A stretch of DNA of 20,000 nucleotides. It comes from an uncultured Methanosarcinales archaeon (GTDB lineage Archaea > Nanobdellota > Nanobdellia > Woesearchaeales > CAYMBN01). Each line of letters starts with the position of its first letter. Within the stretch, counting starts at the first letter, position 1. The position numbers and the translations under genes were made by a program. Below are positions 630 through 13,734 of the stretch, piece by piece. The notes under the pieces were generated by a model. It did no database searches, had not been told where the DNA came from, and saw only the letters and a list, made by a program, of their open reading frames with translations. Location: NCBI GenBank assembly GCA_964388715.1, contig CAYMBN010000001.1, forward strand, positions 248,759-268,758, read 5' to 3'.

Positions 630-1412
630 TTAATTTGGGATTTCTAAATCAGCTGGTTTTACTGTTCTAAACTTATAGGCTGTGAATCTTAAGTTTAGTG
701 TTACATCTCCATTATCATTAAATTCTTTGTAAGTGTAAGGAACTCCGTAATTTCCTTCAAGTAAGACTTCTATTTTTTTGCCTTGTTTGTTAGTACCTTC
801 AATTTTGTGACTTGTTCTTTGTTCATATATTTCTTCTGATACAATCTTACCTGTGTCAATTAATAAAGTGATTTCTTTAGGAGTGATTGTATAAAGTTCA
901 TTGAAATCACGTTCTGTTGCAACACTTTCTTTTTCACAATCTGCTTCTTTACAAAAGCTGACTGCTATTTGTTGTTCTAGGTCAAGTATTGCAATGTTAT
1001 CTTCACCTGTGTTAAACATTTCTCTTGTTCTGATTATGTCAAGACGTGCTGTGTTGGCTATTATTTGATAATCGCGTTCTTCAACACCTTTAATATATCG
1101 ATATTCATAATTTTCAAGGTTTTCTGCGCTTTCGATAATAGTTTTAAGTTTTTCTTCCATTTCTGGTTTTTCACAATCTGAGCATGTTGTGAAATCTTCA
1201 CCTTCCTCACACAGTGTGTTGCCGCAGCAAGGAATTATTTCAGAATGTTGACATTCAAAATTAGTTTGTTCTGAACAAAGATCATCTGTGCATGCATTAG
1301 CATCATCACATGATGCAGGACATGTTTGTGCTTCTGGTTCTTCTGGCACTTCTTCTTTTCCACAAGCTGTTATTAATAGAACTAAAACGATTAATAATAA
1401 TATTTTTCTCAT
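630..1412 (-). CDS. Lipobox-containing secreted protein with Cys-rich module
   Basis: ATG at 1412 lies 5 nt after SD GAGGTGA. Signal MRKILLLIVLVLLITAC, acidic linker, then CPASCDDANACTDDLC...CCGNTLCEEGE Cys-rich module. Confidence 0.75.
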   Translation of the reverse strand: MRKILLLIVLVLLITACGKEEVPEEPEAQTCPASCDDANACTDDLCSEQTNFECQHSEIIPCCGNTLCEEGEDFTTCSDCEKPEMEEKLKTIIESAENLENYEYRYIKGVEERDYQIIANTARLDIIRTREMFNTGEDNIAILDLEQQIAVSFCKEADCEKESVATERDFNELYTITPKEITLLIDTGKIVSEEIYEQRTSHKIEGTNKQGKKIEVLLEGNYGVPYTYKEFNDNGDVTLNLRFTAYKFRTVKPADLEIPN

Positions 1413-1501
1413 TAAAATCACCTCTTGTTTTGAATATTTAAGTATAGAGTATTTATATAGGTTTCGTTAAATATTAATATTTGGGATGATTCTTTTGTTT
1501 T

Positions 1502-2167
1502 ATGTTATCAAAACATGAGAGATTGTTGGAAAGGTTTGAAAAGAAACGGCTTGAGTTTAATAAAACAAAAGATAAAGAAAGGAAAGAGTTGATTAAGAAA
1601 GAAGTTAGAGAGTTAGTTAAGGATTTTCCTGCGCTAAAAGGGTTTTATTCTAATGCTAGAGTTTTTTGGGATTCTGAAGCTCTTATATGGAAGTATAGGA
1701 TTGAGCCTGAATATAGAGAGTTTGTTAGGAAATTTTTGAAAAGGAAGGTGAAAGGTAAGATTTTGGATATTGGTTGTGGTAGTTATCCTTATTTTGATTC
1801 AGTTTGTTTGGATATTTCTCATAATATGTTGAGTTTGGTTAATGGGAAACGGGTTCAAGCTGATGTTGAGAAAGGATTGCCTTTTAAAAAAGATTGTTTT
1901 GATACTGTTCTTATGGTTTTTCTTTTAAAGTATGTGAAGAATATTGAAGGATTGTTAAAAGAAGCTAAGAGGGTTTGTAAAGGAAAGATAATAATTGTAG
2001 AGTCTTTGGCTAAAACAAATGATTGGTTTGTTGAACAGTTGAAGCAGAAGGATGATGGTTTTGATGAATTCTTGATTAAGTTGTTGAAGAAGAAGAGGTT
2101 TAAGTTTAAGAAGTCTGTTAAAAAGGTTGGGAAGAAAGAGTTGTTGATTGTAAAGATTGGAAAATAA
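1502..2167 (+). CDS. Class I SAM-dependent methyltransferase
   Basis: Motif I ILDIGCGS, then LDISHNML, QADVEKGLPF and FDTVL (Methyltransf_11-like pattern). Stop codon overlaps the discriminator base of the convergent tRNA-Thr. Confidence 0.85.
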   Translation: MLSKHERLLERFEKKRLEFNKTKDKERKELIKKEVRELVKDFPALKGFYSNARVFWDSEALIWKYRIEPEYREFVRKFLKRKVKGKILDIGCGSYPYFDSVCLDISHNMLSLVNGKRVQADVEKGLPFKKDCFDTVLMVFLLKYVKNIEGLLKEAKRVCKGKIIIVESLAKTNDWFVEQLKQKDDGFDEFLIKLLKKKRFKFKKSVKKVGKKELLIVKIGK

Positions 2168-2288
2168 GCCTCTGGAGGGATCTGCACCCTCGACCTCGGC
2201 CTTACCAAGGCTTTGCGGACACTTGAAAAACCAGAGTGTCTCGCGCAATTTGTAGGACCTAAAGATCTAGCTACTATGCTACAGAGGC
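2167..2288 (-). tRNA. tRNA-Thr(GGT) with two non-canonical introns: D-loop 20a/21 (2250..2268, 19 nt) and anticodon stem 28/29 (2212..2241, 30 nt)
   Basis: Acceptor GCCTCTG/CAGAGGC+T. After splicing, anticodon arm CGGCC-TTGGTAA-GGCCG and T stem GAGGG/CCCTC. Central helices GTAG/CTAC (bulges CTA, AAA) and TGCG/CGCA (bulges CGA, AAG). Mature length 73 nt. Confidence 0.9.
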
Positions 2289-2426
2289 ATAATGTGATGT
2301 TTTGTGTATTGATTTATATAATTTTTGCATGTTTTTCAGTTTTTGTCTTTTTTTTCCAACGTATATACTGTTCTAAAGAAAACTTTTTAAAGTGGTTGTG
2401 TTTAGTTGTTTCTGGGGTGTTTAGAC

Positions 2427-2795
2427 ATGAAAAAGAACATTCTTATTATTGAAGATGAAGAAGCAATTGCAAAAGCAGAAGCAATGATATTGGGTAGTGA
2501 TTTCAATATTCATGTTGCAAAAGATGGTGAACAGGGATTTAAGATGGCTAAAGAAATTAAGCCTGAGCTTGTTGTCCTTGATTTGATGTTACCAAAACGC
2601 GGTGGGTATGATGTATGTTTTAATATTAGGCAAGATGATGAATTAAAAAATACAAAAATATTAATGGTTACAGCTAAAGCGCAAGAGATTGATGAAGATA
2701 AAGGTATGATGGTTGGTGCTGATCATTACCTTAGAAAACCTTTTGAACCACAAGAGTTAAGAGCGCAGGTAAAGAGATTACTGGAAAATGATTGA
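2427..2795 (+). CDS. Single-domain response regulator (receiver only)
   Basis: IIEDE acidic pocket, phosphoacceptor VVLDLMLP, MVTA and KPF motifs. ATG 2427 follows SD-like GGGGTG. Confidence 0.92.
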   Translation: MKKNILIIEDEEAIAKAEAMILGSDFNIHVAKDGEQGFKMAKEIKPELVVLDLMLPKRGGYDVCFNIRQDDELKNTKILMVTAKAQEIDEDKGMMVGADHYLRKPFEPQELRAQVKRLLEND

Positions 2796-4239
2796 TTTAA
2801 TTCATAAATTCTTTTTCTTTTTAGGTACTGCTGGTGGAGAGTTGCTAAAAAATTCTGTTGAATTGCTTATCTTTACTATTCTAGCTTATATGGTGATATC
2901 TGAATATTCAAGGATTAAGGGAACTGAGTTAAAATTGTTCTCAATTGCGTTTCTTGGGTTAATGGCTCACAGAGCAATGGTTGTTTTTTTATATTTTTTT
3001 GTTGTTTTTGGTGGTTATAGTACGTTGTCTTTAGAGAAGTATATGCCAATAATAATGCATGCACCTGAATTGTTTGCTTTAGTGTTTCTTGTGAATGCTT
3101 TTATTTATCCTTTAATTAAAAAAAGGTTTAAGAGAAATCTTCTTGTTGAAACTGGTTTAGTAATTTTGATTGTAATCATTATAGAAATTTTCTGGTTGAA
3201 TATGTGGAGAGCTGATCGAGCTTTGTTGTTTAGGAATCACTGGTTTAATACTATTTTTATATTGTTGCAGATTTTGATATTAGCTTATCCTATTTATTAT
3301 ATCCCACTTAAAGCTTCGAGAAGGGTAATAAGGTATAGAAAAAATATTGTGCTTGGGTTTACTGTTTATTTAATCAAACCTTTCTTGCACTTAACTAATA
3401 TTGTTTTATATGATAATCAGTCTGTAAGATTAGCTTTGGTTGAACATCCGTTTACAATATTAGCAGTACTTTTGTTTGTGAGAGTTATTTATCTTAAACT
3501 TGCTGATAAAGCAAGACTTCTTGATAAATTAAGGTCAACAGAGTATAAGTATAAAAAAGAGAAGGAGATAAGTGAAATGAAGGATGAGTTTATTTCTGTT
3601 GTAAGTCATGAGTTAAGAACGCCGTTGACATCTATAAAATTGTATTTGTCTTTATTAAGGGATGGTAATTTTGGGAAAGTGAGTAAAAAACAAAAAGATG
3701 CTATTACTACTATTGATGATGAAGCTGGAAGATTGAATGGAATGATTAATAATATACTTGATTTGTCAAGACTTGAGGCAAAGAGGGTTAAGTTAAGCAT
3801 TAAAAAAGTAGATTTAAATGAGTTGATTTCTGATTTTTATTTTAAAGAAGCTGAACAAAAGGGGTTAAAGGTTGTGATAAAGGTTCCTGGTAAGTTTATG
3901 GTTAATGTTGATCCTGAACAGTTTAAACAGGTTTTGATTAACTTGATTAATAATGCAACAAAGTTTACTGAAAAGGGTAAGATTATTATTTCTGCTAAAA
4001 AAGTTAAGCAAGGATGGACATTGATTATAGAAGATACTGGTGTTGGAATTGAAAAGGATAAAATTCCTTTGTTGTTTGATAAGTTTTATCAGACAGAACA
4101 TCATATGACCCGAACACAAAAGGGTTCTGGACTTGGTCTTGCTATTGCAAAAAAGATTGTTGAGTTACATAATGGCAGAATTGAGGTTGAAAGTGATTAT
4201 GGTAAAGGAAGTAGGTTTATTATAGATATGCCTGAGTGA
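2788..4239 (+). CDS. Multi-TM membrane sensor histidine kinase (HisKA + HATPase_c)
   Basis: About 7 hydrophobic segments, then H-box SHELRTPLT, N-box NLINNATKFT, G1 DTGVGI, F-box FDKFYQ, G2 GSGLGLAI. Overlaps the regulator gene by 8 bp. Confidence 0.93.
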   Translation: MIDLIHKFFFFLGTAGGELLKNSVELLIFTILAYMVISEYSRIKGTELKLFSIAFLGLMAHRAMVVFLYFFVVFGGYSTLSLEKYMPIIMHAPELFALVFLVNAFIYPLIKKRFKRNLLVETGLVILIVIIIEIFWLNMWRADRALLFRNHWFNTIFILLQILILAYPIYYIPLKASRRVIRYRKNIVLGFTVYLIKPFLHLTNIVLYDNQSVRLALVEHPFTILAVLLFVRVIYLKLADKARLLDKLRSTEYKYKKEKEISEMKDEFISVVSHELRTPLTSIKLYLSLLRDGNFGKVSKKQKDAITTIDDEAGRLNGMINNILDLSRLEAKRVKLSIKKVDLNELISDFYFKEAEQKGLKVVIKVPGKFMVNVDPEQFKQVLINLINNATKFTEKGKIIISAKKVKQGWTLIIEDTGVGIEKDKIPLLFDKFYQTEHHMTRTQKGSGLGLAIAKKIVELHNGRIEVESDYGKGSRFIIDMPE

Positions 4240-13612: not shown

Positions 13613-13734
13613 GCCGCTGTAGCTCAGCCTGGTTAGAGCGCTAGACTCATATTTTTGAGTGATGAGGATTATTCCGATGAAAAGACTCATAACGAGGCAT
13701 CTAGAGGCCATGGGTTCAGATCCCGTCAGCGGCA
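13613..13734 (+). tRNA. tRNA-Met(CAT), probably elongator, with 47-nt intron at 37/38 (13652..13698)
   Basis: Acceptor GCCGCTG/CAGCGGC+A, D stem GCTC/GAGC, anticodon arm CTAGA-CTCATA|A-TCTAG, T stem ATGGG/CCCGT. G1-C72 and no GGG/CCC anticodon stem argue against initiator. Upstream TTTATAAA and downstream T tracts. Confidence 0.92.

Follow-up and report, generated by a model that had tools for sequence, protein, structure and literature searches.

The minus strand of the window (the whole 20,000-nt stretch of DNA that was analysed) carries a 122-nt gene for tRNA-Thr(GGU) at 2288..2167, which is divided into three exons by two introns and has its anticodon GGT at 2206..2204 (Table 1). With moderate confidence, this is a working gene of a small-genome Woesearchaeota-type (DPANN) archaeon in which both introns are spliced by proteins and in which the order of removal would be a kinetic bias rather than an obligatory switch. 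The coordinates, the pairings and the 8-nt micro-exon AUUGCGCG, which is all that separates the two introns, are as first described. The original prediction had gone on to propose that the precursor must refold between cuts, with a splicing order or a conformational switch as the result.

Table 1. Features of the tRNA-Thr(GGU) gene in the window. Nucleotide (nt) numbers are those of the tRNA; a slash within a bulge or site marks the cut.
Feature	Position	Strand	Description
TATA-like box TTATATAAA	2313..2321	-	25-33 nt upstream of first tRNA base; read from sequence
Exon 1	2288..2269	-	nt 1-20: perfect acceptor 5' strand, U8-A9, D-stem 5' strand, most of D loop
D-stem 5' strand GCA	2279..2277	-	within exon 1
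D-loop bases AGUAGCU	exon 1	-	read from sequence
Intron 1	2268..2250	-	19 nt, in D loop, about 20/21
Intron 1 motif	GUAG 2274..2271 with CUAC 2255..2252 (central helix)	-	5' bulge CU/A; 3' site AA/A
Intron 1 inner helix	GAUC 2267..2264 with GGUC 2259..2256	-	loop UUUA
Micro-exon AUUGCGCG	2249..2242	-	8 nt, nt 21-28: A21, D-stem 3' strand, G26, C27-G28 (anticodon stem)
U23-G24-C25	2247..2245	-	needed by D stem and by intron 2 central helix (pair lists)
Intron 2	2241..2212	-	30 nt, at 28/29
Intron 2 motif	UGCG 2247..2244 (exon) with CGCA 2217..2214 (central helix)	-	5' bulge CG/A; 3' site AA/G
Intron 2 inner helix	GACACU 2240..2235 with AGUGUC 2223..2218	-	pair lists
Exon 3	2211..2167	-	nt 29-73: rest of anticodon arm, variable loop, T arm, acceptor 3' strand, discriminator U
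Exon 3 loops	2211..2167	-	anticodon loop UUGGUAA; variable loop AGGUC; T loop UGCAGAU (unusual)
T-rich stretch TATTTT	2161..2166	-	directly after discriminator; read from sequence

In the unspliced window, neither ARAGORN nor Rfam (at the gathering threshold) reports a tRNA at this site. When both introns are removed in silico, the resulting 73-nt RNA is called as tRNA-Thr(ggt) by ARAGORN, and the exon junctions reproduce the sequence ...GCATAGTAGCTATTGCG... that intron-free tRNA-Thr genes of relatives carry without a break. Many relatives have tRNA-Thr genes whose 5' part is the same as exon 1, and AUUGCGCG is contiguous with its neighbours in intron-free orthologues. The border of intron 1 is ambiguous by 1 nt because the intron and exon 2 both start with A; a shift of 1 nt in the 3' direction leaves the product the same. 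DNA contigs of four runs were also checked. Two of these contig sets (X1 and X2) match the stretch 2050-2450 without difference, but they may be source samples of the genome, which limits the independence of the identical DNA, and no intron-free allele of the gene was found in the contigs of the four runs. A look for RNA runs that cover window 1200-3600 gave none. A contig that joins 2196 to 2268 with 35 other letters between them was considered as a spliced form and was rejected, as it carries the threonine tRNA gene of another organism with the same exon ends.

All stems of the tRNA are intact, and the predicted fold of the precursor (-51.9 kcal/mol) is far below that of 200 shuffled sequences (-35.0 +/- 3.6 kcal/mol; z = -4.72), none of which was as good. 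The Thr-type 5' motif is present in three copies in the genome, with the anticodons GGU, UGU, and CGU; all three genes bear introns and no second GGU gene was found among them. The TATA-like box may serve as an archaeal promoter element and the TATTTT stretch is a probable archaeal terminator. These intact stems, the flanking signals, the single GGU gene, and a two-intron layout that is kept in five genomes, where the inner helices change in sequence and stay paired, led to the rejection of a decayed tRNA pseudogene or of two chance insertions that are never spliced, a reading regarded as very improbable. That reading draws on the failure of the standard finders and on a T loop (UGCAGAU) and a D loop (AGUAGCUA) that depart from the universal pattern, but the odd loops are common to all Thr tRNA genes of the order that were examined. 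The identical DNA in two contig sets, with the reservation given above, also speaks against it. The gene is bordered by a convergent 221-aa open reading frame at 1502..2167 (+), whose stop codon ends on the discriminator base of the tRNA and leaves no spacer between the genes.

The geometry of the splice motifs was calibrated on the canonical BHB intron of the tRNA(CAU) gene at 13613-13734, in which the exon supplies the 5' strand of a 4-bp central helix and the cut falls after the second base of each 3-nt bulge. Both introns of the Thr gene obey this cut rule. Each of their motifs consists of a 4-bp central helix, a 3-nt 5' bulge, and an inner helix, while the 3' bulge has no in-register outer helix; under the strict hBHBh' definition for substrates of classical alpha4 or alpha'2 endonucleases, in which both 3-nt bulges are bounded by helices on both sides, neither motif qualifies. 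The D stem had been thought to close motif 1. It does form in the minimum free energy (MFE) fold, yet it does not act as an in-register outer helix: the 3' site of intron 1 then lies in a 2x4 internal loop in which U13 and A14 face A, A, A21, and U22. For motif 2, nt 21-22 (AU) are unable to pair with nt 30-31 (CC). Motifs 1 and 2 are thus relaxed BHB forms, a class known from Crenarchaeota (PMC4090602, PMC3978253, as excerpted). A slipped GCG/CGC register was tried as an alternative cutting motif for intron 2 and rejected because its 5' bulge is 1 nt. The tRNA(CAU) gene (Met or Ile2; plus strand) has a long canonical intron, a 49-nt insert in the anticodon loop, and scores 55.6 bits in Rfam; its central helix has 3 bp and one A.C mismatch.

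The D stem and the TGCG/CGCA central helix were predicted to claim the same bases, and the pair lists bear this out for three of them: U23-G24-C25 pair either with G10-C11-A12 in the D stem or with CGCA in the central helix of motif 2. Motif 1 closed by the D stem and motif 2 in its proper form do exclude each other, since both need these bases. The exclusion does not extend to the cores of the motifs. The core of motif 1 (GUAG/CUAC, the 3-nt bulge, and GAUC/GGUC) has no base in common with motif 2, and the two cores can coexist at a predicted cost of +3.0 kcal/mol in this gene and of +1.2 to +4.0 kcal/mol in the four other two-intron genes described below. The introns are also not nested, as an 8-nt exon lies between them and only the closure by the D stem overlaps motif 2. 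Any intron at 28/29 must take the exon strand of its central helix from nt 23-26, and therefore the clash with the D stem is built into the position. The same clash occurs in the 15 of 20 family members that lack a D-loop intron and thus is not a product of the two-intron layout.

Constrained folding, which had been suggested as a check, splits the predicted ensemble of the precursor into two folds. At 37 C, the MFE fold (-51.9 kcal/mol) has motif 1 together with the D stem and accounts for 55-62% of the ensemble, while proper motif 2 lies 1.8 kcal/mol higher and accounts for 5%; the figures are similar at 15, 20, and 60 C. The MFE fold also contains the slipped GCG/CGC helix (probability 0.94), by which the 5' bulge of intron 2 shrinks to 1 nt. 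The slip is possible because nt 26-28 are GCG and follow G24-C25. With intron 1 removed, proper motif 2 is predicted to rise to 14%, with the slipped helix at 84% and the D stem at 16%; with intron 2 removed, motif 1 is predicted to stay at 66-73%. The same energy model ranks the mature cloverleaf 3.5 kcal/mol above the MFE, a misranking which indicates that nearest-neighbour models are weak for tRNAs, and the populations and the predicted order are therefore soft. The gap of 1.8 kcal/mol between the two modelled folds is within the error of the energy model.

An obligatory order would require that the D-stem-closed fold locks the precursor until intron 1 leaves, after which the RNA refolds and motif 2 is exposed. 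Three bases are indeed common to the D stem and motif 2, and the GCGCG run permits the slipped helix, so that the MFE fold presents motif 1 alone. The endonuclease of this genome looks like the plain alpha4 type, which is described as strict (PMC5829648, as excerpted), and there are precedents in the excerpts of two papers: a forced order for nested archaeal tRNA introns (PMC3978253) and ordered BHB processing for Cyanidioschyzon (PMC3728597). Obligatory ordered splicing of the tRNA-Thr(GGU) precursor is plausible on these modelled folds, although it is considered rather unlikely. In the model, the loss of intron 1 does not unlock motif 2, as the slipped helix persists; a gap of less than 2 kcal/mol would make a weak lock; and no fold turns either motif into a strict BHB. 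In addition, the slipped helix needs C27-G28, and the other four two-intron genes have UU or CA at these positions.

Relatives were sought in several ways. A pattern for the D-loop intron was run on 401 sampled genomes of the order and gave four matches, the window's genome among them. All four are tRNA-Thr(GGU) genes and each also has a 28/29 intron. Two of them (from genomes G244 and G315, which are flagged as unpublished) are the same sequences as loci L043 and L055 of a public genome scan and are counted under the latter names. That scan, with one genome per species, gave 18 loci with a 28/29 intron. A first metagenome scan that required both introns and the anticodon found none, and a looser second scan found one, L057, which is a further two-intron gene. 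The family therefore comprises 20 genes with a 28/29 intron: the 18 loci, L057, and the gene in the window. Both introns are present, at the same places, in five of the 20 (the window gene and genes of four other Woesearchaeota-type genomes). The remaining 15 have no D-loop intron; by eye, all of them have extra bases directly after GGUA, the canonical 37/38 site, and ARAGORN marks a 37/38 intron in 10. The combination of introns at 28/29 and 37/38 in these 15 genes leaves a 9-nt micro-exon (nt 29-37) that bears the anticodon. L043 has a third intron at 37/38 and hence two micro-exons, of 8 and 9 nt. When spliced in silico, 16 of the 20 family members are called as Thr(ggt) by ARAGORN, three receive no call, and one is mis-called as Phe; unspliced, none of the 20 is called as Thr and one is mis-called as Arg.

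The search patterns required UUGCR and CGYAAA, and to cite the conserved central helix (UGCG/CGYA) of the 20 genes as evidence would therefore be circular. The inner helix of intron 2 lies outside the patterns. Its contiguous pairs average 6.1 over the 20 genes and 0.75 in shuffles; at least three pairs are present in 17 of the 20, and the first five bases of its 5' strand occur in 15 distinct forms. The intron 2 inner helix thus varies in sequence yet stays paired across the family. The inner hairpin of intron 1 also varies between genes. CUAC, which the D-loop pattern left unspecified, precedes AAA in all three further matches to that pattern, while L057 came from a pattern requiring YTAC. 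Covariation by alignment of the five two-intron genes was uninformative because MAFFT misaligned the length-variable inner helices, and helix counts per sequence with shuffled controls were used in its place. RNAalifold on these five genes retained only the UUGCG/CGCAA helix, with no double changes.

The predicted folds of the relatives differ from that of the window gene. Of 19 family precursors, 17 have motif 2 as the MFE fold, at a probability of 0.69-0.98 and with the D stem near 0; only the window gene and L055 differ. Among the two-intron genes, motif 2 dominates in three of the other four (L042, L043, and L057), at 71-92% with motif 1 at no more than 2%, whereas neither motif dominates in L055 and motif 1 dominates in the window gene. 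No conserved order can be read from the folding energies, and the modelled bias towards intron 1 first is not conserved. This difference in preference between orthologues counts against an obligatory order and, with the narrow gap and the compatible cores, makes the statement that the precursor must refold too strong. For this one gene, given its predicted slipped helix, refolding with a resulting splicing order is a reasonable hypothesis.

The compatibility of the cores also allows for a different reading, in which no refolding takes place: the hairpins of motif 1, motif 2, and the anticodon would stack cooperatively, end to end, and a single fold would allow both introns to be cut. Motif 2, whose helix begins exactly 3 nt (AAA) past the central helix of motif 1, would then stand in for the outer helix that motif 1 lacks, a 3-nt bulge-like linker would hold the 3' site of intron 1, and the anticodon hairpin would play the part of outer helix for intron 2. 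A structure with both motifs does have CUAC-AAA-UUGCG with a 3-nt linker, as compared with the 2x4 loop that holds the same site when the D stem is closed. The CUAC-AAA-UUGC spacing is the same in all five two-intron genes (although the string is partly fixed by the search patterns), and a motif 2 hairpin with the D stem near 0 is what is predicted for most of the family. The cost of holding both cores (+1.2 to +4.0 kcal/mol) was computed with a model in which neither coaxial stacking nor protein binding is given an explicit term. However, the arrangement makes up no more than 0.6% of the predicted ensemble of the window gene and about 2% or less in the other genes, the opposite strand is broken at the junction so that the linker is not a true bulge, and few base pairs would retain the 8-nt exon if the cuts at both introns preceded any ligation. 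Simultaneous cutting from stacked hairpins is therefore judged improbable.

A combination of these ideas is slightly less likely again. The micro-exon might be the hinge in a chain of three stacked hairpins whose neighbours supply each other's outer helices, with the GCGCG slip adding a two-state switch by which intron 1 and then intron 2 is removed. If the three-hairpin hinge were true, a plain, insert-free alpha4 endonuclease would handle non-canonical introns across the Woesearchaeales, and the architecture of the substrate rather than an insert in the enzyme would explain the broad intron repertoire of the order.

The reading preferred here, of two protein-spliced introns with a kinetic bias, needs an endonuclease and a ligase, and both are encoded. 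The genome (1.3 Mb in 31 contigs, 95.75% complete; the window has 32% G+C) has one EndA gene of 177 aa at C2:54148-54678 (-), with the domains PF02778 and PF01974, a TIGR00324 score of 129.7 bits and a PF01974 score of 101.4 bits in the genome search. There is no paralogue in the genome at E<=10, and the beta-subunit model matches the same gene only, though at 95.75% completeness a second subunit could be unassembled. Of 31 genomes of the order, 30 have exactly one PF01974 match and one has no match; the catalytic-domain matches span about 86-87 residues in most of those genomes and are shorter in two. Apart from one 1-residue gap, the EndA of the window's genome aligns collinearly with the Methanocaldococcus jannaschii alpha4 enzyme, and it is without the 2+4 extra residues found before the catalytic His in the Nanoarchaeum equitans alpha subunit. 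An alpha4 (homotetramer) EndA is encoded by one gene of about 180 aa that has an N-terminal and a catalytic domain, with no gene for a second subunit, and the EndA described here appears to fit this type. RNA ligase RtcB is represented by two genes (PF01139, 549 and 275 bits). The genomes of this order are full of relaxed non-canonical introns, yet the EndA of the window's genome is collinear with the strict M. jannaschii enzyme.

It is proposed that the 122-nt precursor is transcribed, that both introns are cut by the single alpha-type EndA, and that the exons are joined by RtcB. In each relaxed motif, an inner hairpin and a 4-bp central helix flank a clean 3-nt 5' bulge, while the 3' cut site lies in a looser loop. 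A 28/29 intron must build its central helix on nt 23-26 and thereby takes over the D-stem 3' strand, and the precursor would therefore sample at least two folds. In one, the D stem and motif 1 form and the slipped GCG/CGC helix conceals the 5' site of intron 2; in another, proper motif 2 forms and the D stem is open. The two would differ by 3-4 base pairs and about 2 kcal/mol, and fast exchange between them is expected. In this genome, a kinetic bias towards removal of intron 1 and then intron 2 is expected rather than an obligatory switch. If one intron is cut and ligated at a time, the 8-nt exon would be kept tethered throughout. A point against this proposal is that it does not account for the use of relaxed motifs by an alpha4-like EndA that looks strict.

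Tandem introns in archaeal tRNA genes and their ordered removal have been described before. Thermoproteales such as Pyrobaculum and Thermofilum have multiple-intron tRNA genes in which nested introns are removed in a forced order (Sugahara 2007/2008 and Tocchini-Valentini 2009, as cited in PMC3978253 and PMC4090602). The window gene resembles these, as far as the citing papers describe them, in having two or three short BHB introns per gene at non-canonical positions that include the D loop and the anticodon stem, in its small internal exons, and in the idea of a motif that can form solely after another intron is lost. It differs in that the introns lie side by side rather than nested, with an overlap confined to the outer D-stem closure, in that the host is a low-G+C DPANN archaeon, and in having one alpha-type EndA gene instead of the alpha-beta pair of Crenarchaeota. 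Hirata and coworkers (2011, PMC3241643) showed that the D-loop intron of Aeropyrum pernix pre-tRNA-Thr2(UGU) is cut by EndA alone, though more slowly than a canonical intron. That gene is likewise a threonine tRNA with a D-loop intron, but according to the excerpted source it has one intron and another anticodon (UGU), and its EndA is a heterotetramer with a Crenarchaea-specific loop.

Soma and coworkers (2013, PMC3728597) used RT-PCR to demonstrate ordered removal of several BHB motifs from pre-tRNAs of Cyanidioschyzon merolae, where the order tracks the computed stability of the motifs although each motif folds on its own. By analogy, an order that tracks stability would be expected for the precursor described here. 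C. merolae is, however, a eukaryote with another endonuclease, its motifs as excerpted have no bases in common, and the order was measured there and is predicted here. Kaneta and coworkers (2018, PMC5829648) linked a DPANN alpha4-type EndA with an inserted loop, L3, to many disrupted tRNA genes, described classical alpha4 endonucleases as strict for full BHB motifs, and pointed to incomplete tRNA sets as a sign of hidden disrupted genes; their survey included one Woesearchaeota genome. The genome of the window is similar to their DPANN cases in its single alpha-type EndA and its wealth of intron-bearing tRNA genes. It may depart from the L3 trend, as alignments of its EndA with the M. jannaschii and N. 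equitans proteins show no insert. The study by Kaneta and coworkers was the sole relevant match for tRNA introns in Woesearchaeota, and no paper on the Woesearchaeota tRNA-Thr family was found in the literature searched. Both the ordered removal of BHB introns and this type of gene are already in print, and the idea of ordered splicing is not new.

A tRNA-Thr(GGU) gene that is invisible to standard finders has consequences for annotation, as the genome would be scored without it. Rfam tRNA matches in this genome number 20 at E<=1, of which 14 pass the cut-off, and 9 of these 14 are longer than 80 nt. Many tRNA genes of the genome are probably hidden by non-canonical or multiple introns, and hidden multi-intron genes probably explain a good part of the gap between 14 matches and a genome that is 95.75% complete. 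The 20-gene Thr(GGU) family provides a natural test set for the action of a single alpha-type endonuclease on relaxed non-canonical motifs, and it is also suited to the question of whether RNA folding sets the order of splicing. Related loci come from records with titles such as Woesearchaeota or Nanoarchaeota archaeon, and 10 of the 18 genome records with a Woesearchaeota-type tRNA-Thr gene are titled 'uncultured Methanosarcinales archaeon'. The Methanosarcinales titles of these 10 assemblies look like a labelling problem.

A partial copy of a tRNA-Thr gene is present in another genome (G001), at about 1497-1560 of locus L010 (equivalent to about 555-620 of L027). It has the 5' part of a tRNA-Thr through GCUA followed by a hairpin like that of motif 1 (GAAU-UAGC-AUUC, then CUGC-AAA) and lies about 850 nt upstream of a complete Thr(GGU) gene. 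No downstream exons were found in roughly 140 nt after the hairpin, and the copy could be a split-tRNA half, a gene with a very long intron, or a dead fragment. A further observation concerns the elbow of the tRNA. In all Thr tRNA genes of the order that were examined, the T loop starts with UGC (G at position 55) as opposed to UUC, and the Thr D loop AGUAGCUA has G-C at the usual place of G18-G19. This odd elbow occurs in all three Thr genes of the window's genome (window 2167-2288, C10:8890-8977, and C27:1264-1360), while the 12 other tRNAs detected by Rfam all have TTC. Among the 20 GGU genes, the T loop has TGCA in 19 and CGCA in one. Judged from these sequences, both sides of the D-loop/T-loop contact seem to have changed together, and specifically in tRNA-Thr.
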